Virus record (IMG/VR): IMGVR_UViG_3300047444_000783
Location: 32,001-96,000 of that record
Strand: one strand, 5' to 3'
Origin: a virus
DNA: 64,000 bases
How positions within the stretch are numbered: position 1 is the first letter of the stretch; each line of letters starts with the position of its first letter. The position numbers and the translations under genes are program-made. Positions 39,016-64,000 of this stretch are shown one piece after another. The notes beneath the pieces are model-generated. The model saw only the letters and a program-made list of their open reading frames with translations, was not told where the DNA came from and did no database searches.

Positions 39016-39065
39016 TTTAATAAATTAAATTAACGTTTGACCGTCGTAAGGGAGGGTGTTAGGCT
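39016..39065 (+). promoter_or_regulatory. sigma70-type promoter for a + strand small RNA
   Basis: AT-rich UP tract, TTGACC (39037-39042), 17 nt, TG-n-TAGGCT (39060-39065). Confidence 0.65.
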
Positions 39066-39070
39066 GGGGT

Positions 39071-39154
39071 TCTACTATCGTTCCCTGGCCGATCGCTCCC
39101 ACGCGGTCGCCACTGAAAGCGGTCGGCCCGGCAAGGTCGGCCGCTTTTCTTTCT
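39071..39154 (+). ncRNA. Candidate ~85-nt small regulatory RNA
   Basis: Bounded by a promoter and an intrinsic terminator; internal hairpin CGATCGC-TCCCAC-GCGGTCG; no ORF with an RBS. Confidence 0.55.
39116..39154 (+). terminator. Intrinsic terminator (+ strand)
   Basis: GCGGTCGGCC-CGGCAA-GGTCGGCCGC followed by TTTTCTTT. Confidence 0.75.
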
Positions 39155-53985: not shown

Positions 53986-54008
53986 GAGAACCTCCTGAAT
54001 TAGTGAAC

Positions 54009-54221
54009 TTACCGACCGGCCGATCGGCCAGGCCGACGACCACTCTTTTTGGCGAAGCGATTGGCTGTGCTGTGGAGTCGCCCGACGGCTCTGCCGAGGC
54101 GCTTCGGATCCGCATGGATTTCGTCCGTGCGCATCAGATTCTGCACGTCATCCCGAGTCTGCCATTCGTCATGGTCGGGATCCAGTGATGACGGCATCGC
54201 CACATTGCCCTTCTTCGCCAT
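54009..54221 (-). CDS. Small basic hypothetical protein (70 aa)
   Basis: SD GAGG; WQTRDDVQNL.R..EI..DP.R pattern. Confidence 0.7.
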   Translation of the reverse strand: MAKKGNVAMPSSLDPDHDEWQTRDDVQNLMRTDEIHADPKRLGRAVGRLHSTANRFAKKSGRRPGRSAGR

Positions 54222-54253
54222 AGAACCTCTCAGACTTTAGAGTAAGCGGACTG

Positions 54254-56218
54254 TCAAGACGGCTTTAACAGACTCATCGGGTTGTCCGACCCCTTCCCTT
54301 TATGGGCTGGCGGGCCGCCGGCTGGAGAGGCGCTCCCGGGTGGAGGCGGCAACTCCGGCATGCCACCGGGCGCGCCACCGCCGGTCAGTGCCTGCCCAGC
54401 CTGGGCGGCCATCAGCCGCTGCGCCTGCTTGTCCTGCTCCTGGTCGAGTTCCTTCTCGACGTTGTCGTACAGGCTTTCCATGTCCATTTCCTTGTACAGG
54501 GTCTTGCGACTCATGTCGCCAGTCCGGCGCAAGGCCATGGCAATCATCTGGTTGTTCTGCTGGTTGACGTTCAGCATCGTCCCACCACCACCGATATCGA
54601 AGAAGAAGTTTTGCGCGTGATCCTCGGCTCGTCGCCCGGTCGGTACCATCGTGCTCGTGTTTGCATCGAATACGTCCTGGGAGGTCACACCCGCGCGCCC
54701 GTACATCCACATACGTCGCGACAGCGTGTAGAACTGCATCTCGTTCGGCACCATCTGGTCGCCGATATCCCGGACGCCGATCTCCATGTACCGGCCGCGC
54801 AGTCTCATGATCGTCTGCTGGGTTTCCTTCAGCCCCTGTAGGGTGTCGCCCGCTGGCGTGACTTTCTTACGCGCCAACCCATTGACGTCCAGAAGCCCTG
54901 AATCGTCGTCCATTTCGTTCTGGGCGTACATCCCCATGTTCGAAACGTAGTTCGGGAGCATCGGCGGATTCTGCCATGCCGGCGGTGACGGTGACATCGG
55001 GTTGTATCCGATCTTCGCGTTCGGCATGTTCGGATCCAGCGCATTCTTGATCGCGTCGGAGAACGCGCTATCCGGGAACAGGAATGGCGGGTTCACCGCC
55101 TTTTTAATCATATCGAGGGTCCCGGCCAGGACGGTGTTGACGATGTCCTGAAGCGGGATCTTCGACCGCAACTCGGATATTCCATGGAACTGCCACGGTA
55201 CCGGCTTCAGCCGGAGCGCGACGAACGGGAATTTCCCATGCCAGAAGAAGTTCGGACCGTCATACAGCGGATAGAGTTCGGTCCCTCCGGTGATGATCAG
55301 CCGGCCGCGAGGATAGAGCGGGGCGCCGGGCTTCACTTCGTAGTACCAGTTGGTTCCGGGCGTCCCCATCTTCACGATGTTCTGGCTGGTGTTGATCGAA
55401 TAATCCTTGATCCAGAATTCTCGATACCATGCCTGAGCAACCGCAGACTCCCCGAATTCTCGAGGACTGCCGACCCACCGCTGCATCTGCGGGCTGAGCA
55501 TGTCGAAGTTCATGGCGCCCGCCTGGCGTGGCCGTTGGAACGGCTTCGCGTAACGGGAGAGCGAATCGTCTGGCTGGACGAACGAACCGGGGCCAGGGAA
55601 GTTCCGACGGAACCAACTGATGTTCCGGACAGACTCGTATATGCAGCCTTCCCAGTCCTGCAGGTTATGCGCCGGGCCGATCGGGATCAGATCGTACGGG
55701 CTGAGCGGGTAAAGCTGGAAGTCGCCACGGCCGCCACATAGCTGCTTGTTCCAGGCGATCCGCAGGTATCCGGTCGTCAAATAGGCGTAAATGACGGCCA
55801 TCGACAGTTGGAAGTCGATGTCGTTCTTCACCCACCAGGATTTCGTGATCTTTGTCAGGAGTTCGGCCTGGTCGTCCCACGTATCCTCGTGGGCCTTGAC
55901 CTCGTAGATCGGCCGGATATCCGTCAGGATCGCGACCGTCTGCTCCATCGAACGCAGGAGGCGGTTATTGACCGGGCTGGCTTTGTAACTCGGGCGCCGG
56001 TTCGGCCACTGGTCGCCCATCAGGTAGACGATATCCTGTGGCAGGTTCTGGATTTCCTTCGAATCGCGCATCCATGCCGACCCCTCATCGAGCGCCGCAC
56101 GTAGCCACGCGCGGCGCCGGGCCGACTGCTGATCGGCAGTCAGATTCGGGTTGAAGTCCAGGAACTCGTAAGGGTGACCTTGGGCGCTAGGACCCGCCCA
56201 CGATTGAACGGTTGACAG
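54254..56218 (-). CDS. Portal protein (P22-like); probable CTG start at 56218 (track start 56071)
   Basis: YLMGDQW, NRL, GKFPFV, IPLQD.VN motifs; the open frame extends upstream through ARRRAWLRAALDEG to GGAGG-CCTT-CTG. Confidence 0.85.
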   Translation of the reverse strand: MSTVQSWAGPSAQGHPYEFLDFNPNLTADQQSARRRAWLRAALDEGSAWMRDSKEIQNLPQDIVYLMGDQWPNRRPSYKASPVNNRLLRSMEQTVAILTDIRPIYEVKAHEDTWDDQAELLTKITKSWWVKNDIDFQLSMAVIYAYLTTGYLRIAWNKQLCGGRGDFQLYPLSPYDLIPIGPAHNLQDWEGCIYESVRNISWFRRNFPGPGSFVQPDDSLSRYAKPFQRPRQAGAMNFDMLSPQMQRWVGSPREFGESAVAQAWYREFWIKDYSINTSQNIVKMGTPGTNWYYEVKPGAPLYPRGRLIITGGTELYPLYDGPNFFWHGKFPFVALRLKPVPWQFHGISELRSKIPLQDIVNTVLAGTLDMIKKAVNPPFLFPDSAFSDAIKNALDPNMPNAKIGYNPMSPSPPAWQNPPMLPNYVSNMGMYAQNEMDDDSGLLDVNGLARKKVTPAGDTLQGLKETQQTIMRLRGRYMEIGVRDIGDQMVPNEMQFYTLSRRMWMYGRAGVTSQDVFDANTSTMVPTGRRAEDHAQNFFFDIGGGGTMLNVNQQNNQMIAMALRRTGDMSRKTLYKEMDMESLYDNVEKELDQEQDKQAQRLMAAQAGQALTGGGAPGGMPELPPPPGSASPAGGPPAHKGKGSDNPMSLLKPS

Positions 56219-56549
56219 AAGGCCTCCGCGCCGGCTCGTCCGACAGGATGATTCGTTTTGCGACGTACGGTCGCGTGACTTCGATCAGCCGCCGGCAGAT
56301 CCGGCAGCGGAACGGGATTCGATCTTCGCCCGGTGTATGGTAATTTTCGGCCTCGTACATCGATTGCCGATTCCGATGGCCACACTTGGGGCTGGGGCAG
56401 ACGAATACGATGTAATCGGTGCCCGTGTCCTTCTTCTCCATCGCCCGCAGTTTGGACGGGTCGTCCTCGACCGGCACCCACCGCCGCATCGTCCCGCCGC
56501 CCTTGTTCACGATCTTTAGCGCGGTCGTCCGCAGAATGATCTCGCTCAT
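56187..56549 (-). CDS. Zn-ribbon protein (120 aa)
   Basis: CPSPKC and CRIC; SD GGAGG. Confidence 0.7.
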   Translation of the reverse strand: MSEIILRTTALKIVNKGGGTMRRWVPVEDDPSKLRAMEKKDTGTDYIVFVCPSPKCGHRNRQSMYEAENYHTPGEDRIPFRCRICRRLIEVTRPYVAKRIILSDEPARRPSVNRSIVGGS

Positions 56550-56893
56550 CGGCGGCCTCCCATGTCAAAGACCTTGCCGATCTTAGGCGTCTTCTTTCGG
56601 ATCTCGCCGCCGACGGCCTCGAGGTCGGGGTCATCATAGTCATGACGTACCCCGTACTCGCGAGCGATGAACTCCAGGTCTCCCTTTGAGGCTATTTTCA
56701 TCGGCTGCCCATCCGGGCGCACGTGCCGGGTTTCGAACGCTTCGAATACCTTGACGGAGATTTTCAGTCCTCCGAGTACCCGGAACATCTTCGCTCCACA
56801 GCACGACGGATCGTCGTCATGATTCTGCGAGGAGCAGACGGTGTTTGGCTGGATGGCCCCGCATGTTTCACATTCAAAATCGTGGATTATCAT
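56546..56893 (-). CDS. FmdB-like zinc-ribbon protein (115 aa)
   Basis: MIIHDFECETCG...CCGAKM.RV; ATGA coupling. Confidence 0.7.
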   Translation of the reverse strand: MIIHDFECETCGAIQPNTVCSSQNHDDDPSCCGAKMFRVLGGLKISVKVFEAFETRHVRPDGQPMKIASKGDLEFIAREYGVRHDYDDPDLEAVGGEIRKKTPKIGKVFDMGGRR

Positions 56894-57483
56894 GCGCGTT
56901 GCGGCGCCCTGTTGAAGTACGTTTCGATGTAGGCAGAGAATTCTTCCTGACACCATTCCTGCACGGTCTTGTCCGAGTACTCCGCGGCCTCGGCAAGGCC
57001 GCCCTCGAGCGCCCATTCCGGCAGGTCGATGACAACCTGCGTACCAGTCGGCTGGACGCCGCCCGGGCGCAGCGGCGCGCGCGAGCGAACGGTCGCGATC
57101 TGTGCGCGTAACGAACGGATTTCCGCTTCCTTGTCTTTGTTGTCCGTCACGTACGCGAAGATTGCCCCCTTCAGGTCCGGGCCGCCGGTAAGCACGGTCC
57201 CCGTGATTTCCTCGATCGCCTTCTTGGTCTCCGGGTCGATCACGATGTTCATGGCGGCGCGGGCAGCCGGATCCATCACGACCGGCGCATCAGGCGCCTT
57301 ATAGAAGTTCGGGTATTTCGTTCGCGCCTGTGCGCGCAACATGTTGAGTTCTTCCGTATCCTCAAACTTGTGGCCGGCGCGACAGTTCGTGAAGAACTGC
57401 CCCGGACGGTCCATCAACGGGTTGACTACCCCGTTATTCAGACAGATCGGGCACGGGTCTTTTGTTGTGATATCGGTCGACAT
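56890..57483 (-). CDS. Hypothetical protein with N-terminal Zn finger (197 aa)
   Basis: CPIC...C..GH; SD AGGAG. Confidence 0.75.
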   Translation of the reverse strand: MSTDITTKDPCPICLNNGVVNPLMDRPGQFFTNCRAGHKFEDTEELNMLRAQARTKYPNFYKAPDAPVVMDPAARAAMNIVIDPETKKAIEEITGTVLTGGPDLKGAIFAYVTDNKDKEAEIRSLRAQIATVRSRAPLRPGGVQPTGTQVVIDLPEWALEGGLAEAAEYSDKTVQEWCQEEFSAYIETYFNRAPQRA

Positions 57484-57492
57484 GTCTCTCTC

Positions 57493-58110
57493 CTATTCTG
57501 ATTTGGCCGTCAAGGGCAGGTCGGAGAATTCAAGGAAGACGACCGGCGGTTTGAATTTCCGGCCGATGTATTTGCACTGAACGCCTCCCAGTTGCGGAGA
57601 GGTCGCGAACGGATGCTCGTACCGGCCGCCCTTCATTCCGGTCAGGGACGGGCTGTCCAGGCGTAGCCCGCAGGCGGGGCAATTGAAGACACCGCCGACC
57701 ATCTGGAGACTCAGCCCGCGGTCGCTGATTTCCGAGCGGATCTGGTCGCGGACGTGCGCGATCTCGGCGATCATCTCAGCGCGGAGCGCGGAATCCATCT
57801 CCTTCGCAGTTCCAACTGCAAGGCCAACTGCAGCGTCTGCGTTGAAAGTTACGCCGTCGCCGACATACGAAACGCCTTCGTCCAGGCCAAGCCCCATTGC
57901 CGACATTTTCGCCATGTTCTCCTGGCTGGTCGGAACCTCAATGTCGGGCTTCGCTCCGGCGATGAACTTACGGGCGCCCGTCTCGTCCTGAACCCATTGG
58001 CCATCTTTCTCCTCCGGCAATTCGGTCCCCGGCAGTATCATCTCGGCGACTGGCGGGCCTCCCGCGGTCCCGCCTTCCTGACTGTGCTTCTCGTGATCTT
58101 TCTTCGGCAT
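57493..58110 (-). CDS. Hypothetical protein (205 aa)
   Basis: SD AAGGAG; CPAC...H...C. Confidence 0.75.
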   Translation of the reverse strand: MPKKDHEKHSQEGGTAGGPPVAEMILPGTELPEEKDGQWVQDETGARKFIAGAKPDIEVPTSQENMAKMSAMGLGLDEGVSYVGDGVTFNADAAVGLAVGTAKEMDSALRAEMIAEIAHVRDQIRSEISDRGLSLQMVGGVFNCPACGLRLDSPSLTGMKGGRYEHPFATSPQLGGVQCKYIGRKFKPPVVFLEFSDLPLTAKSE

Positions 58111-58119
58111 GGTCTCTCC

Positions 58120-60117
58120 TTAAAGGTGGTTGTATTCCGGAGTTCCGGAATTCTCCTGTTTGTCAAATAGTGAAAAGTCGGTGTTGTGGGCGCCGCGGCC
58201 GTCATCCGGGAGCGGCGCCTCGTCGAGCATCGTGAACAGGCGTGGATCGAGTTCCATCAGGCAGTAGCAGCAGATCATCGCGCCAAACAGCGCGTCGTCG
58301 TGCTCACCGCCTGCCGCCTCGAAACGGTCTGTCTGGTCCGGGTTTTCGTTGATGAATGCCTGGCATTCAGAATGGAGTCGAGAACTCCGGATCTCTACCG
58401 AATCGTCGATCAGGAGCGTGCGGAAGCGCGTGATCAGATCGTTCCGCGCTTTCTCGGTACCCGTGTCCCATCCCCAGAAGTTCGTAAACCGCGACTTCGC
58501 AGTCTTATCCTGCCGGCGCCACCGGTAGACCTTCGGGTACCGATGCACATGCAGGATGTTTCCGATGTGCTCGGTCATGTTGTTCGACTCGGGCGAAATC
58601 TCGCACGTGTTGTACATGTGCCCGAGCGCACAGACCATCTGAGCCAATTCCTTCGGGTTCGCGTACCCGCGGTACTCGACGCACTGGCGGATCCGTTCGC
58701 CCTTACGGCGGGGGACCCGAAAGAACTGGGCTGCCGAGAAGTCCAGTCCGGGAATACCCTTCGCCGGGTCGGATGCCCCGTAATAGATCTCCTTGGTTGT
58801 CGGCCATTCCCAGATCCAGAGCGGTGCCTGGTTGAGCATGCTCAACTGCTCGTTCGTCAACGGGCCGGTCGCGCTCGCGCTACGGGCGAAGTACCGGACG
58901 AGTAGTGGCTTATCTTCCTTGAAAATCAACTCGCCGGCCCATATCGGGTACCGGACGTCCCGGACTTCGATCTGCGCCAGTTTCTTTAACGGGAACGCCG
59001 GAATGCCCTTAGAGCGGAACGCCGATCGCGCAAACGACGGGTATTCCTGTTCAACCTTCTCGGCATCTCCTTCGGTCGCTTCGAACTGCTCGGCCTGCTC
59101 TCTCCGCCAGGCCATCTGTTCCTTCGAGATTTCGAACGCATATTGATCGCGGACCTTCGAGGCCAACTCGGTTTCTTCTTTGGTGAAGTAGAACTGCGAC
59201 TTCTCGACCTCCGAAGTGAACGGCTTCGAGTACGTCTTTTCCTTCCACCATCCGGCGAATACCGGTTTGAACTGCCCGCGCCCGCGCATGGCCGCATCCC
59301 ACATCTTGAGGAACGCGTACTTTTCGCCCGACCCCTTGGCTGTCCCCTCGACCACACAGATGACGTACGGGTTCTTCTTTGGCAGCGACGGCAGGATGTC
59401 CGACGTCAGAATCTCCGGGTGTGTCCAGAGACCGAACTCGGTCGCGTGCACGTTGTGGAGGGTGAAACCTCGAGAGGAACCGCTCGGCTTGTTCGCCGCG
59501 TCGACGAAGAATGCGCTATTCAGACCGGGGTTGCGCATCTGCTCTTCTTTGTCCTTGCGGTTGAATCGAAGGATACCGTCCCCGTGGTTATTGACCTCGA
59601 TCTCCGGGCGCATCCACCACGGCAAAAAGCTGTAGGCGAGCACGCTCATATTGAAGATCTGTTTGGAGCGCTTCATCTCGTCGGCGATCACGAGCGAGTT
59701 CGTCAGACGGTTACATGTCGTTTCCTGGAATAGCGCGCCCTGAACGAGCGTCGACCAGCGGATCTGGCGGGCCTTCAGCAGGAGGAACCACGGCGGAAGT
59801 CCGGCTTCCCAGGCGGCAACGAATTCGGCCCACAGGATCTCCTGGGTTTCGGTGAACGGGCTGACGGTCTGCAGGCGGGGCGCCTGCCAATCCTCACCCT
59901 TCGTGTTGATGACGAAGTAGTTTTCGAGGTAGTAGCGCTTGCACTGGTGGGTCCGGCCGGTCGCGCGCGCGAGTTCGATCTGGATCGCGCCGATCTCCTT
60001 CTCGGACAGCCGGGCGAGCGTCGCCCGTCGGTCGCCCTTGTTCTCGGCAAGACGGGCGTCCAGGAGTTCGATCAGATCCGAAACGTATGCGTCTCGGCGT
60101 GGGATCCGCTGTGCTAT
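58120..60117 (-). CDS. terL: Terminase large subunit; non-canonical (ATA/ACG) start, ~665 aa
   Basis: Walker A-like LLKARQIRWST lies upstream of the track start (59691); RGFT...HATE Walker B, VEGTA, ASDPAKG..DFS, HDD. The frame is open to TGA at 60151-60153 with no ATG/GTG/TTG. Confidence 0.9.
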   Translation of the reverse strand: MAQRIPRRDAYVSDLIELLDARLAENKGDRRATLARLSEKEIGAIQIELARATGRTHQCKRYYLENYFVINTKGEDWQAPRLQTVSPFTETQEILWAEFVAAWEAGLPPWFLLLKARQIRWSTLVQGALFQETTCNRLTNSLVIADEMKRSKQIFNMSVLAYSFLPWWMRPEIEVNNHGDGILRFNRKDKEEQMRNPGLNSAFFVDAANKPSGSSRGFTLHNVHATEFGLWTHPEILTSDILPSLPKKNPYVICVVEGTAKGSGEKYAFLKMWDAAMRGRGQFKPVFAGWWKEKTYSKPFTSEVEKSQFYFTKEETELASKVRDQYAFEISKEQMAWRREQAEQFEATEGDAEKVEQEYPSFARSAFRSKGIPAFPLKKLAQIEVRDVRYPIWAGELIFKEDKPLLVRYFARSASATGPLTNEQLSMLNQAPLWIWEWPTTKEIYYGASDPAKGIPGLDFSAAQFFRVPRRKGERIRQCVEYRGYANPKELAQMVCALGHMYNTCEISPESNNMTEHIGNILHVHRYPKVYRWRRQDKTAKSRFTNFWGWDTGTEKARNDLITRFRTLLIDDSVEIRSSRLHSECQAFINENPDQTDRFEAAGGEHDDALFGAMICCYCLMELDPRLFTMLDEAPLPDDGRGAHNTDFSLFDKQENSGTPEYNHL

Positions 60118-60177
60118 CGTTCCGCCCTTTAGGGGGGAAGGTCTTACATATCAGCCGGCGGCAACCGGCGTACGAAG

Positions 60178-60627
60178 CTATTGGGCTTCCAGGCGGTCAA
60201 TCAATGCGTACATTCTAAACAAGCCTTCTTCGAAGTGCTGCTCTCGCTCTGACTCTGGCGTCAACTCTGTCACGAGCATTTCCTCGCCGATATCAAACAT
60301 TTGACCGCGCTGGTACTCACAGTCAAACTTGGCTAGTGCCCCGACCATGACAGCCGCGTGACGTTCATTAGGTGCACGACGATCTTTGGCGGCAAGCCAT
60401 TGGGCGACCAGTCTTTCGGGGCGGTTATCTGGATAGACGCATGTCCAGTGGCTGTCGCCGGCCGCGAAATTACGAAATACGAAATCGCCAGTATGGATCT
60501 CGCGGTTGCATGTATGGCACGGATCACCATCAAACCCAGCCTCGATCTTGACCTTTTGACCCTTCCAGCCCGTCCACTTCCAGATCTCCCAACCTCGATA
60601 GATAATCGGCAGCGCTGGCGTGCTCAT
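60178..60627 (-). CDS. Hypothetical protein (149 aa)
   Basis: SD GGAGG; WTGWK, C..C...H..C. Confidence 0.7.
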   Translation of the reverse strand: MSTPALPIIYRGWEIWKWTGWKGQKVKIEAGFDGDPCHTCNREIHTGDFVFRNFAAGDSHWTCVYPDNRPERLVAQWLAAKDRRAPNERHAAVMVGALAKFDCEYQRGQMFDIGEEMLVTELTPESEREQHFEEGLFRMYALIDRLEAQ

Positions 60628-61145
60628 TCGGTCCTCCCGCGTTCTTTCAGGATCGTCTTCAGGCCGATCTCCTTCGCCATCGTCTCGAGGTCCATCGTAT
60701 CGGTATCGGTTAGAAATCCTTGTTTCTTCAGCAGTTCAAACTGCTCGCGCATATAGAGCGCCTCGTCACTGTTCGGGATGAACGAACCGCCGGTCGCAGT
60801 CAGCGGCGTCTGCGGATTCACCGGGAGCGCCGGCATCAGCCCGGGCATTGTCCCGGCGACCGACCGCCGCTCGATCTGAACGACCCGCACGATCAGCACT
60901 CCGCACACGTAGAGGAAGGCGGTGGCGACCAGCAGGAATATCGTGGCGACGAAGATCAGGAGCAGGGCCGAGAATGGCGCGCTCGGGACCGGCGATAGCC
61001 TGAGCACCCAATAGCGCTCGACCGGGGGGAAGGTTAGAACGATGATCAGTGCAAGCATCGCCAGGCGCACATACGGCCAGACGGCTCGACCAGTCCCCCA
61101 GACAACCGATCCCACGCGCGCGCCAGCTAACCAGAATTTATTCAA
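60624..61145 (-). CDS. Membrane protein (173 aa)
   Basis: Two hydrophobic segments; coupled ORF. Confidence 0.65.
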   Translation of the reverse strand: MNKFWLAGARVGSVVWGTGRAVWPYVRLAMLALIIVLTFPPVERYWVLRLSPVPSAPFSALLLIFVATIFLLVATAFLYVCGVLIVRVVQIERRSVAGTMPGLMPALPVNPQTPLTATGGSFIPNSDEALYMREQFELLKKQGFLTDTDTMDLETMAKEIGLKTILKERGRTE

Positions 61146-61341
61146 TGAAACCCCTTAGATGACAGTTCCGTATCTCTACGCCAACAACGCCAGCAGGAAC
61201 CACGATCATCGGAGAATGCTTAAAAATAAAGCGGCCTCGCGTCGATCCGGTGCGTTCAATTCTCACGCCGTCCAATATCTGTCCGTCGCTCATCACGTAA
61301 GATGGCGGGTCTGTAACATGCTGATATTTAACATCTGCCAT
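61138..61341 (-). CDS. Hypothetical protein (67 aa)
   Basis: TGATG coupling, SD AGGAG. Confidence 0.55.
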   Translation of the reverse strand: MADVKYQHVTDPPSYVMSDGQILDGVRIERTGSTRGRFIFKHSPMIVVPAGVVGVEIRNCHLRGFIE

Positions 61342-61946
61342 CAAAACATCTCCTCGTTTTCTTCCGTGACTTCCGTCGCCTGGGTTTCGATGATCTGACG
61401 AGAGGCCGGAATCGGGGCACCGCGCTGGCGCTCGTGAATCCGGTCGATCATATCCTCGTACGTCAGTTCGCCCGCTCGAGACCCGTCGTTGTTATTGATC
61501 TGCGTATTCATGTTGATCGCCACCTGCGTGCTTGCCGGCTTCTCGTTCAGCCCCAGGATCTTACTCGCCGCCTCGATTCCCATCGCAAGGGTTTCCGGGT
61601 CGATGATCTTTTCCGTGTGGATCTCGCCCGTCTTTGGGTCGATTCCGACGACAATCTTTTCGCCAGTCAGTAGCGCATCAATGGCTTCCTCGAGTTGGTT
61701 CTTGTCGAGTTTCTTGCGCAGCCGCTTTCTCAGCTTCTCGTTCTCGAGCGCGCTTTCAAACCGCGCGTCCCGCAACGCCATTTGCTGCTCGACCTCGCAG
61801 ATCGCGCGACCCCGCTTGACGCTCTCCTGGACGACCGCTGGCGTCACCTGGTCGATCGTCGCAACCTCAACGATCGTCATCTCGTGATCGCGCACCATCT
61901 TGTACCGGCGCACGTCCACCGACGCCTCGTCGATCTTGGCCGGCAA
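61341..61946 (-). CDS. Probable terminase small subunit
   Basis: N-terminal HTH-like segment, helical oligomerisation region, SKILGL...VAINMNTQINN tail; upstream of terL. Confidence 0.55.
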   Translation of the reverse strand: MPAKIDEASVDVRRYKMVRDHEMTIVEVATIDQVTPAVVQESVKRGRAICEVEQQMALRDARFESALENEKLRKRLRKKLDKNQLEEAIDALLTGEKIVVGIDPKTGEIHTEKIIDPETLAMGIEAASKILGLNEKPASTQVAINMNTQINNNDGSRAGELTYEDMIDRIHERQRGAPIPASRQIIETQATEVTEENEEMF

Positions 61947-61982
61947 GTTAGTCTCGTCTTTTCGCCGCGTACCCCACTCCTA

Positions 61983-62390
61983 TTACAACTTGGAGTTCTT
62001 CTTTAACTGTACATGGTACGCCAGTTCGATGAACCGACGTATTGAATCGGGAGACCGATCCTTAAGCCGCCTCGACTGCAGGTACGACCTAACCTGCACG
62101 ACGCTAACGCCAATCAGCCGGGCCGTCAACTCGACAGGTAACTCCTGATCGACTGACGTTATGAAAGCCCTTAGCCGGCCTGATCTACGCCGGCGTTCGG
62201 CAATGAACGTGTCGAGGTCGGAGACTTTAAACCGGACGGTACACCCCATCTTGACGTACGGCAGGTACCCGCGGCGCTGCCAATTCTTGACCGCGTGGAA
62301 CGTCACGTCCATATAGGCCGCCGCATGATGGACATCGAACAGGCGGGAGTCCATCATGACGATCTCCTCGAGAGACCCCTTCTCGATCAT
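61983..62390 (-). CDS. Excisionase/MerR-like HTH DNA-binding protein
   Basis: LFDVHHAAAYMDV...VKNW...G.LPYVKMG..VRF...DLD.FI. Confidence 0.8.
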   Translation of the reverse strand: MIEKGSLEEIVMMDSRLFDVHHAAAYMDVTFHAVKNWQRRGYLPYVKMGCTVRFKVSDLDTFIAERRRRSGRLRAFITSVDQELPVELTARLIGVSVVQVRSYLQSRRLKDRSPDSIRRFIELAYHVQLKKNSKL

Positions 62391-62647
62391 GCACGCTTCG
62401 CCGGCTGCTGCGCCATCTCAACCCGGATCTTCCGGCCGAGCACGGGACAATCCCGCATCTGCTCGATCGCTTTATCCGCGTCCACCCCGTCCTTCAGGGT
62501 GACGAAGCCGAAGCCGCGGGATACCGATTCCTCGTCCCGCATGATCTTGACGGCCGCGACCCCGAAGCCGTCCGATTCAAACGCGGCCTTGAGGTTGTCC
62601 TCTGTCGCGTCGTAATTAATATTTCCGATAAACAACTGCTTTCCCAC
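62387..62647 (-). CDS. RRM (RNP-1/RNP-2) RNA-binding protein (86 aa)
   Basis: RNP2 LFIGNI, RNP1 RGFGFVTL, A..AI..M....V.GRKIRVE.A; SD AGGAGG. Confidence 0.93.
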   Translation of the reverse strand: MGKQLFIGNINYDATEDNLKAAFESDGFGVAAVKIMRDEESVSRGFGFVTLKDGVDADKAIEQMRDCPVLGRKIRVEMAQQPAKRA

Positions 62648-62655
62648 TGGTCCTC

Positions 62656-62925
62656 CTAAGTTTTCTCAACCTTGTCTTCCCGTACCCGCTTGATATCCTT
62701 GAACGCGTTCAGGATCAGCCTCAACTCGCCCGTACCCGAATAATCTTCGATGTCGGCCAGCAAGACCGTGATCTGCTCGACGATCAGCCGCCCGGCGATC
62801 ACCCATTTCTGGACCTCGGATTCGTTCGCTGCGTTCGTCTTCGCCCAGGTCTCGCGCATCGCCTGGTACATGCGCATCAGTTGTAGCAGCCTGCCTTCGA
62901 ACTCCTGATCGTCCTTAATGGCCAT
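62656..62925 (-). CDS. Hypothetical helical protein (89 aa)
   Basis: ATG 62925 downstream of a promoter-like element; the track's GTG start lies within that promoter. Confidence 0.65.
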   Translation of the reverse strand: MAIKDDQEFEGRLLQLMRMYQAMRETWAKTNAANESEVQKWVIAGRLIVEQITVLLADIEDYSGTGELRLILNAFKDIKRVREDKVEKT

Positions 62926-62940
62926 GTCCGTTAGGTTTAT

Positions 62941-63000
62941 AGAATACTTCGGCCTAAATTGCACTTGAAATAATTAAACTTAGCGCGTATCGTGCTCGCC
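62941..63000. promoter_or_regulatory. Back-to-back sigma70-type promoters
   Basis: + strand: TTGAAA (62965)-17 nt-TATCGT (62988)-7 nt-ATG 63001 (leaderless). - strand: TTCAAG-17 nt-TATTCT. Confidence 0.6.
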
Positions 63001-63204
63001 ATGTCTGTCAAATACGACGAACCGAAAGCCGGCCAATGGGTACAGCCGGTGAGGAAGGGCTACAAGTTGTCCTGCTGCGATTGCGGACTCGTCCACCGTA
63101 TGGATTTCAGAATCCACGAGGGGCGCATCCAATTCCGCGTATTCCGGCACAATCGCGCGACCGGACAAATGCGTCGGCACATGAGGAAGAGGGGCGGGTT
63201 ATGA
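63001..63204 (+). CDS. Small phage Cys-motif protein (67 aa)
   Basis: W.QP...Y...CCDCGLVH...FR...R.NRAT pattern. Confidence 0.75.
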   Translation: MSVKYDEPKAGQWVQPVRKGYKLSCCDCGLVHRMDFRIHEGRIQFRVFRHNRATGQMRRHMRKRGGL

Positions 63205-63404
63205 GCGCAGAATTTAAGCCGACGAAGAAATATCAGATCTGGTACTACACCGGCGAAGGGTATTCGTTCGAGGAATTCGACACCCAGGAAGAGGTCGCCC
63301 GATATCTCGAAAGTGGCGTTACGTTTGGCCGATGGTTCGCCACGAGACTCCAGGAGTTCGACGTCTATCTCCGTGATTGGGTTCCACCGAAGGCGGCCGA
63401 GTGA
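63201..63404 (+). CDS. Hypothetical protein (67 aa)
   Basis: ATGA coupling, GAGGGG upstream. Confidence 0.65.
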   Translation: MSAEFKPTKKYQIWYYTGEGYSFEEFDTQEEVARYLESGVTFGRWFATRLQEFDVYLRDWVPPKAAE

Positions 63405-63946
63405 TTACGCGATCGCTCAAGCTGGGGCGCCGGGAACACGAGAGTCAGGCCGAGTGGCGGGAGGCCGCTTACTCCGATGACGAGATCTACCGGTACCGCC
63501 TGGATATAACGTTCGACCCGGAAAATCCACGGACGCTCGTGACGATCGGCCTCAACCCGTCGACCGCGACCGAGAACAAAGACGATCCGACGATCCGCGT
63601 ATGCAAGCGCATGGCAAAGGATCTGGACTGCGGGACCTACCGGATGCTCAACGCCTTCGCCTTCCGGTCGACCGACTACAAGGCGCTGTTCCGGAACCCG
63701 GATCCGATCGGGCCGGAGAATACCCTCGAGTACCTGCGATACTGGTGTGACGGCGCGACCGTCGTCGCCTGCTGGGGCGCTCACATTACTGAGCGGCCAT
63801 GGCGCCACTTCTACCGCGGGAGAGAGATCGCTGCGGCGATTCCAAACCTCCAGGCGTTGAAGGTTACGCAGAGCGGCCACCCGCATCATCCGCTTTATCT
63901 TCCGGTCGACATCCGCCTCCAGCCATTCGCTTATGCTATCGATTGA
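63401..63946 (+). CDS. DUF1643 family protein
   Basis: YRYRL, IGLNPSTA...DDPTIR, N.FA.RST, GPEN, CWG, P.HPLY. Confidence 0.9.
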   Translation: MITRSLKLGRREHESQAEWREAAYSDDEIYRYRLDITFDPENPRTLVTIGLNPSTATENKDDPTIRVCKRMAKDLDCGTYRMLNAFAFRSTDYKALFRNPDPIGPENTLEYLRYWCDGATVVACWGAHITERPWRHFYRGREIAAAIPNLQALKVTQSGHPHHPLYLPVDIRLQPFAYAID

Positions 63947-63980
63947 CCAGTCTGTCAGTATGAGAAACAGAGGTAGCACA

Positions 63981-64000
63981 ATGCGCGCGATCGTGACCGG
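63981..64000 (+). CDS. 5' fragment of next gene (MRAIVTG...)
   Basis: GAGG SD then ATG; truncated by the window. Confidence 0.45.

Follow-up and report, generated by a model that had tools for sequence, protein, structure and literature searches.

Probable near-cognate start codons in the large terminase and portal genes of an uncultivated phage, with a candidate small RNA predicted to pair with the terminase start region

Where does translation of phage DNA-packaging genes begin when their reading frames hold no conventional start codon ahead of long stretches of apparently coding sequence? The question is raised by a 64,000-nucleotide (nt) stretch of DNA, bases 32001-96000 of the 109,586-base IMG/VR record of an uncultivated phage (IMGVR_UViG_3300047444_000783). 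This whole stretch is referred to below as the window, and positions are those of the window unless stated otherwise. The genes for the large terminase (terL) and the portal protein both lie on its minus strand. On the basis of comparative sequence analysis, we consider it probable that TerL and portal are translated from AUA at 60117 and CUG at 56218, that these weak codons limit output, and that a small RNA (sRNA) likely adds a further layer of control to terL.

A preliminary description of the window had claimed that 142 terL codons, including the Walker A motif, lie above the first GTG, and the count is exact from ATA 60117 to GTG 59691. The terL frame (58120-60150, minus strand) contains no ATG, GTG or TTG before GTG 59691. 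The Walker A equivalent is encoded upstream of this codon, so that a canonically started TerL would be without its ATPase P-loop. The terL features are as follows.

58120..60117, minus strand: terL (large terminase) coding sequence, redefined, approximately 666 amino acids (aa), start ATA; homologs of 633-677 aa span the entire N-terminus and the family profile matches the ATPase of T4 gp17 and the RB49 nuclease domain
60115..60117, minus strand: proposed terL start codon ATA (AUA); distant homologs have ATG or GTG at the aligned position, and the relatives L003 and L022/G001 have ATC
60118..60120, minus strand: ACG, the alternative terL start of the preliminary description, less likely; aligns with the Met of homolog P0008 only
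59689..59691, minus strand: GTG, the first in-frame canonical codon of terL, which cannot be the start
59749..59775, minus strand: TerL residues K126-T134, numbered in the stop-to-stop frame, the equivalent of Walker A (invariant K..RQ..WST), from invariant alignment columns, aligned to the gp17 Walker A

The window TerL has a PHROG terminase match and no Pfam match. A profile of 32 TerL homologs matched the T4 gp17 ATPase in the Walker A region (E = 1e-8) and the nuclease domain of the RB49 terminase (E = 2.5e-6), and the predicted product combines the ATPase Walker A and the C-terminal nuclease fold of a large terminase. The Walker A in this family reads K-A-R-Q-(I/L/V)-(G/R)-W-S-T, in which an invariant Trp replaces the usual GK(T/S) lysine and an invariant Lys lies six residues before it.

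We found 54 TerL homologs, most of them between 633 and 677 aa in length, with 97-100% coverage of a query starting at 60120; those that span the N-terminus show 45-75% identity. In distant homologs, the initial Met is located 3-5 residues before a conserved IPR(R/K)D, where the window has T-I (ACG-ATA); the locus DNA of these relatives has ATG as the start in most cases and GTG in five. Among close relatives, L003 (63% identity) carries ATC where the window has ATA. L022, whose terL start region is identical to that of the complete genome G001, reads TAG-ACA-ATC; its in-frame TAG lies two codons before ATC, and only ACA or ATC is therefore usable after the stop. At the position of ACG 60120, the relatives have CCC or ACA, neither of which is near-cognate, and the Ile codon (ATA, ATC and ATC) is the sole near-cognate codon common to the window, L003 and L022 at the terL start. 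The alignments support a terL start at ATA 60117 rather than at ACG 60120. The preliminary description had proposed ACG or ATA and had suggested aligning homologs for conserved N-termini. That alignment finds the leaders conserved and places the starts at ATA for terL and CTG for portal, which sustains the ATA half of the proposal and, with CCC or ACA in the relatives, disfavours the ACG half.

The codons that follow the proposed terL start appear to be under selection at the protein level. Over the first 15, the proportion of nonsynonymous differences (pN) is 0.15-0.26 and that of synonymous differences (pS) is 0.73-0.86, while pN over the next 30 codons is 0.33-0.44. Low pN with saturated pS in these leader codons indicates that the leader is translated.

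RNA structure at the terL start was also considered. The ribosome-binding-site hairpin described earlier (~60139-60120) does appear in the predicted fold; its stability (z = +0.55 against shuffled sequence) is unremarkable and its form is not conserved in L003 or L022, so we do not retain it. More generally, the folds of six start regions were no better than those of shuffled sequences (z from -0.98 to +0.55). The GGA is part of a small local stem in each of the three terL leaders, which we regard as chance. An ATG-TAA mini open reading frame (60148-60143, minus strand), 26 nt before the terL ATA, is not conserved in L003 or L022, and neither is an out-of-frame ATG found in the L003 terL leader.

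The portal frame is open from 56284 to 54254 on the minus strand, and its first ATG lies at 56071. The 49-codon extension from this ATG up to CTG 56218, behind GGAGG and a 4-nt spacer, had likewise been described before, and it is borne out here.

54254..56218, minus strand: portal coding sequence, redefined, 654 aa, start CTG; homologs carry Pfam P22_portal or SU10_portal
56216..56218, minus strand: proposed portal start codon CTG (CUG); CTG at the same site in L002 and L003, TTG in L102/L103
56223..56227, minus strand: portal Shine-Dalgarno (SD) sequence GGAGG, 4 nt before CTG; SD-like sites lie 5-7 nt before the start in relatives

The window portal itself falls below the Pfam cut-offs (22 bits for PF23899 and 20 bits for PF16510). 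Its close homologs carry PF16510 or PF23899 and it matches the phrog_156 portal (E = 1.9e-7), so that by family profile the predicted product is a P22/SU10-type portal. Seven close portal homologs have their initial Met exactly at the position of the window CTG, approximately ten are called at the equivalent of ATG 56071, and three are extended to an upstream ATG and have Leu at the CTG site. The start in L002, L003 and L102/L103 is preceded by AAGGA, AAGGAG or AGGAGG at a distance of 5-7 nt. Across the 21 codons after CTG, pN is 0.13-0.28 and pS is 0.61-0.81. Taken as sequence evidence, these observations support a portal start at CTG 56218.

We screened a codon-usage-based set of 80 open reading frames (ORFs) from the whole 109.6-kb genome for comparable cases. 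The two largest open leaders lacking a canonical start, measured beyond the stop of the upstream gene, belong to terL (153 codons) and portal (38 codons). No other ORF of the 80 is without a canonical start. In nearly all of them, ATG, GTG or TTG follows the stop of the preceding gene by a few codons at most, and AGGAG or GGAGG is the usual SD sequence before many genes of the phage. The canonical codons elsewhere in the genome, often behind AGGAG or GGAGG, indicate that the host uses SD-led initiation with normal codons. The near-cognate habit is confined to packaging genes (two to three of approximately 80 ORFs).

No promoter-like sites above the level of shuffled sequence were found in the packaging module, which suggests that the relative output of its genes is probably set at translation. 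In Escherichia coli reporters, AUA, AUC, AUU and CUG initiate at 1-2% of the level of AUG, and ACG falls in a 0.1-1% class (bioRxiv 10.1101/063800). Given these reporter data, the absence of promoters and the restriction to these genes, it is reasonable to infer that weak codons keep the packaging proteins scarce. The ordinary initiator tRNA would presumably decode AUA 60117 and CUG 56218 as Met, and the near-cognate starts of terL and portal would be an inherited feature of the clade rather than damage. The packaging genes would share a long late transcript with genes whose products are needed in far higher copy number, and, as the module lacks promoter-like sites, the weak codons most likely set a low translation rate. 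Such a rate would suit the approximately 12 copies of portal, or fewer of TerL, per virion, and the timing of terL and portal output could also be affected, for example through relief as host initiation factor 3 (IF3) declines. The earlier idea of coordinated translational throttling survives in its throttling part, as an interpretation. Coordination finds no such support, because relatives combine strong and weak codons independently: the terS (small terminase candidate), terL and portal starts are GTG, ATC and CTG in L003, and ATG, ATC and TTG in G001.

A further element that could act on the terL start is a predicted sRNA gene encoded elsewhere in the window.

39037..39153, plus strand: predicted sRNA gene (RNA ~39066-39153), with -35 at 39037-42, -10 at 39060-65, seed at 39075-84 and terminator at 39119-39153
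60114..60123, minus strand: terL start-region 10-mer complementary to the sRNA seed, from sequence complementarity

The predicted gene has a promoter of the form TTGACC-17-TAGGCT, followed by a free 5' region of ~20 nt, an internal hairpin, and a terminator formed by a GC hairpin and a U run. Its modelled fold leaves the 5' seed free and is stable (z = -4.06 in the window and -3.6 in G001), and the sRNA thus appears to have its own promoter, an intrinsic terminator and a stable structure with an accessible seed. The sRNA 10-mer at 39075-39084 is the exact complement of the terL mRNA at 60123-60114, which comprises GGA, ACG, AUA and the next G. This 10-bp match is the best among the 80 start regions; approximately 18 such 10-mer sites are expected genome-wide by chance. 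The syntenic sRNA of G001 keeps the promoter, internal hairpin and terminator and has a different seed. That seed forms ten consecutive pairs (nine Watson-Crick and one G-U) with the different terL leader of G001, ending directly before ATC, while in the window all ten pairs are Watson-Crick. Shuffled sRNA bodies gave p = 0.0056 for the window and p = 0.0015 for G001. In this one relative, the complementarity between seed and target appears to have been kept by compensatory change. The internal hairpin of the sRNA also changes in sequence between the window and G001 (L111 1391-1478, minus strand), with pairing kept.

By covering the SD-like GGA, the spacer and the start codon, the sRNA would block 30S binding and act as a second brake on terL. 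The sRNA likely represses terL initiation, the direction and timing of this effect being read from the predicted pairing. A more elaborate version, in which terL is under two co-evolving keys, the near-cognate AUA or AUC, by itself almost silent, and a dedicated sRNA whose seed tracks the start, perhaps together with falling IF3 or a phage tRNA(CAU), is put forward only tentatively. Avs-type sensors of bacterial defence detect two proteins, TerL and portal. Avs2, for instance, senses TerL (PMC13601566). Two-key control might time or cap terminase synthesis and keep the Avs-sensed TerL and portal scarce, a purpose that we consider possible and somewhat doubtful. A 74-aa early gene (genome 5174-5395) also matches the sRNA seed over 9 bp in its SD-to-ATG region (L109 5188-5198; genome 5190-5198, plus strand); this site could be a second target or a chance match. 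Further sRNA homologs, sought in IMG/VR by terminator pattern, were found only in the G001 lineage.

Several points weigh against the starts and the sRNA layer proposed here. Start-site DNA from close relatives was available from two sources only for terL (L003 and L022/G001) and from three for portal. The selection tests on the leaders are small, covering 15 codons in terL and 21 in portal in three to four sequences, with pN/pS of ~0.2-0.35. The only SD-like sites before the terL ATA are AAAGGG, or GGA at 3 nt, both of which are weak, and ACG 60120 could serve in the window itself, although this is less likely than ATA. In L002, a weak similarity to the three extended portal homologs runs on upstream of CTG, so that the L002 portal start may lie further up, in a stretch that is also free of canonical codons. 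The start-codon efficiencies are those of E. coli and may not hold for the host of this phage. A single relative underlies the sRNA covariation, and the sRNA transcript itself is a prediction.

The conventional explanation would be that translation starts at the first canonical codons (GTG 59691 or ATG 59676 in terL, and ATG 56071 in portal) and that the upstream frame is untranslated. The database entries for the proteins of the window itself are called in this way (for TerL, P0001 at 518 aa), as are approximately ten portal homologs at the equivalent ATG. However, a TerL so started would miss the invariant Walker A equivalent and ~140 conserved residues, the portal leader combines a conserved protein sequence with synonymous change that is saturated, and full-length homologs exist. 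The Walker A equivalent and leader conservation exclude these downstream starts, and we give the explanation very little weight. A start of terL at the near-cognate CTG 60063, with the ~18 codons before it a relic, is also unlikely, if less so. Gene callers place most close TerL homologs at the Met of MDARL, the position at which the window has this CTG (Leu), and CTG is itself near-cognate. In distant homologs, which start upstream, the same position is L, F or M, which marks it as an internal hydrophobic residue rather than a start; no usable SD sequence precedes it in any of the three DNAs, and constraint is tighter over the 15 codons upstream (pN 0.15-0.26) than over the next 30 (pN 0.33-0.44), synonymous change being saturated.

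Because the record is a metagenome assembly, one might suspect errors of sequencing or assembly, or else a defective phage in decay. Such an origin is highly improbable, since relatives that were assembled separately, among them a complete 107-kb genome with terminal repeats, carry the same codon classes at these sites. Error would have to have struck at two to three independent sites, and decay is at odds with the lack of frameshifts and internal stops and with a CheckV rating of 100% complete. Even less credible is a TerL N-terminus supplied by recoding, whether through frameshifting or stop read-through from an upstream ORF, or through an alternative genetic code. An ORF at 60178-60735 (minus strand) is indeed in the terL frame, separated from it by TAG and TGA (60151-60180), but the upstream gene is in a different frame in L003 and L022, there is no shared slippery site, the 32 phage tRNAs include no suppressor, and genes across the genome end normally under table 11. 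The differing frames in relatives and the lack of a suppressor rule against read-through and frameshifting in particular. A-to-I editing of AUA to AUI was likewise ruled out: the AUC of the relatives cannot become AUG, and no TadA-like context is present.

Finally, the weak codons could be read efficiently by a phage factor, such as a single tRNA(CAU) with an initiator-like acceptor end, in which case they would serve as a switch and not as a throttle. This tRNA (L108:6796-6869) has C1xA72 in the window genome and U1.G72 in G001, with A73, G2-C71 and C3-G70 in both. A73, G2-C71 and C3-G70 are formylation determinants, and together with the mismatched or wobble 1:72 pair they resemble the acceptor ends of bacterial initiators. 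Against this, the three G-C pairs of an initiator anticodon stem are missing, the 11:24 pair is the C-G of elongators, and the anticodon is still CAU, which is no better match to AUA or CUG; we judge such a switch improbable, and any role of the tRNA in start choice is speculation. It is the sole tRNA(CAU) among the 32 phage tRNAs (L108 6796-6869, minus strand; L115 1472-1543, plus strand), its anticodon stem contains U31.G39 and just two G-C pairs, and position 55 of its T-loop is C. It may be a candidate initiator, an elongator Met tRNA or an Ile2 tRNA, and a search of E. coli genomes with its sequence gave no match. Translation of TerL from AUA 60117 and of portal from CUG 56218 is the account that we prefer to all of these.

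The packaging module is encoded on the minus strand in the order helix-turn-helix gene, terS candidate, two small ORFs, terL, four small ORFs and portal, and its synteny is kept across a large family of uncultivated phages. We found no close relative among 50,697 GenBank phages (<26% identity to any), and neither a prophage copy nor a close relative in a scan of GTDB genomes. An exact-peptide scan with portal found nothing, and an Rfam scan of 54000-64000 gave no match. terL and the next two genes (56890-60150) occupy one reading frame with single stop codons between them, the starts following 3-4 codons later, and the same tight same-frame packing of terL and the following genes is seen in L003 (1312-4893). 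The small gene before portal (56187-56549, minus strand) has two CxxC pairs, is zinc-ribbon-like and conserved across the family, and its last 32 nt overlap the portal start.

The third gene for which a non-canonical start had been suggested is the terS candidate.

61341..61970, minus strand: terS candidate, start ACG 61970 or TTG 61946; syntenic upstream of terL across the family, no family match

No Pfam or PHROG terminase match was obtained for 61341-61979, and it is the conserved position upstream of terL that suggests a role as small terminase (TerS). As first described, AGGAG (61981-61977) is followed after 6 nt by ACG 61970, and TTG 61946 has no good SD sequence. The arrangement ahead of ACG comes directly after an in-frame TAG. 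P0176, the only close homolog (71% identity), begins M-R-T-G-T-R-R-R-D, and the L003 N-terminus is GTG-R-K-G-Y-R-R-P-D; at the position of this Met, the window has TAG, then E-W-G-T-R-R-K-D. Window codons upstream of TTG 61946 thus match the N-termini of P0176 and L003, and the conserved residues use different codons in the window and L003, which hints at translation. ACG is the only near-cognate codon among the 11 codons available for the start. In this small sample, we put ACG 61970 and TTG 61946 at about even odds, so that the earlier preference for ACG is left undecided. A motif, TGGGG..GT.AC...AAAAGAC, lies at 61950-61976 (minus strand), just upstream of the terS candidate; it recurs in distant relatives (L012 ~986-1010 and L018 ~400-420), where a stop codon makes it non-coding, and it may be a regulatory or pac-related element.

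If the proposed starts are correct, gene callers truncate TerL by ~150 residues and portal by 49 throughout this uncultivated clade, and the N-termini given in database entries such as P0001 and P0055 are incorrect. This kind of misannotation affects structure prediction, family building and terminase-based phylogeny. The locus would also offer a clean natural case in which start-codon strength, and not promoters, sets stoichiometry within a phage late operon. Since the affected genes are those recognised by bacterial Avs sensors, a link between expression level and immune evasion is raised. The sRNA-terL pairing, if real, would represent a phage sRNA aimed at the start site of a terminase; a literature search found no published example.

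Near-cognate starts are already known as a kind; what would be new here is their restriction to packaging genes, the clade-wide Ile-codon start in terL, and an sRNA seed that co-varies with the terL start. The E. coli genes infC (encoding IF3) and pcnB use AUU start codons, and IF3 discriminates against such codons. No canonical start precedes the conserved coding sequence of terL in the window, L003 and L022, or that of portal in the window, L002 and L003. As in infC, pcnB and the class described by Hecht et al. (bioRxiv 10.1101/063800), a one-mismatch codon stands where orthologs have AUG: ATA or ATC against ATG or GTG in terL, and CTG against Met or TTG in portal. The codons after the start show protein-level selection in both leaders. 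The portal start resembles those of infC and pcnB in lying behind an SD site, and low output is inferred here as well. Unlike infC and pcnB, the genes concerned serve virion structure and packaging in a phage, they use AUA, AUC and CUG in place of AUU, and no autoregulatory logic is evident.

The nearest counterparts of the sRNA are phage antisense RNAs that occlude ribosome-binding sites, namely the c4 RNA of P1 and P7, which acts on icd-ant, and the sar RNA of P22, which acts on ant. Like these, the predicted sRNA is short, phage-encoded and ends in an intrinsic terminator, and its free seed would pair with a phage mRNA at the SD and the start. In contrast to them, its target is a large terminase and not an antirepressor, its gene lies ~21 kb away from that target on the other strand, and the pairing spans only 10 bp. 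The terminase itself has the architecture of gp17-type enzymes of T4 (PDB 3ezk and 3cpe) and RB49 (3c6a), with an N-terminal ATPase whose Walker A contains RQ, and with an RNase H-like nuclease at the C-terminus. Compared with these proteins, the window TerL is very distant, having no Pfam match and an invariant Trp at the position of the GK(T/S) lysine.

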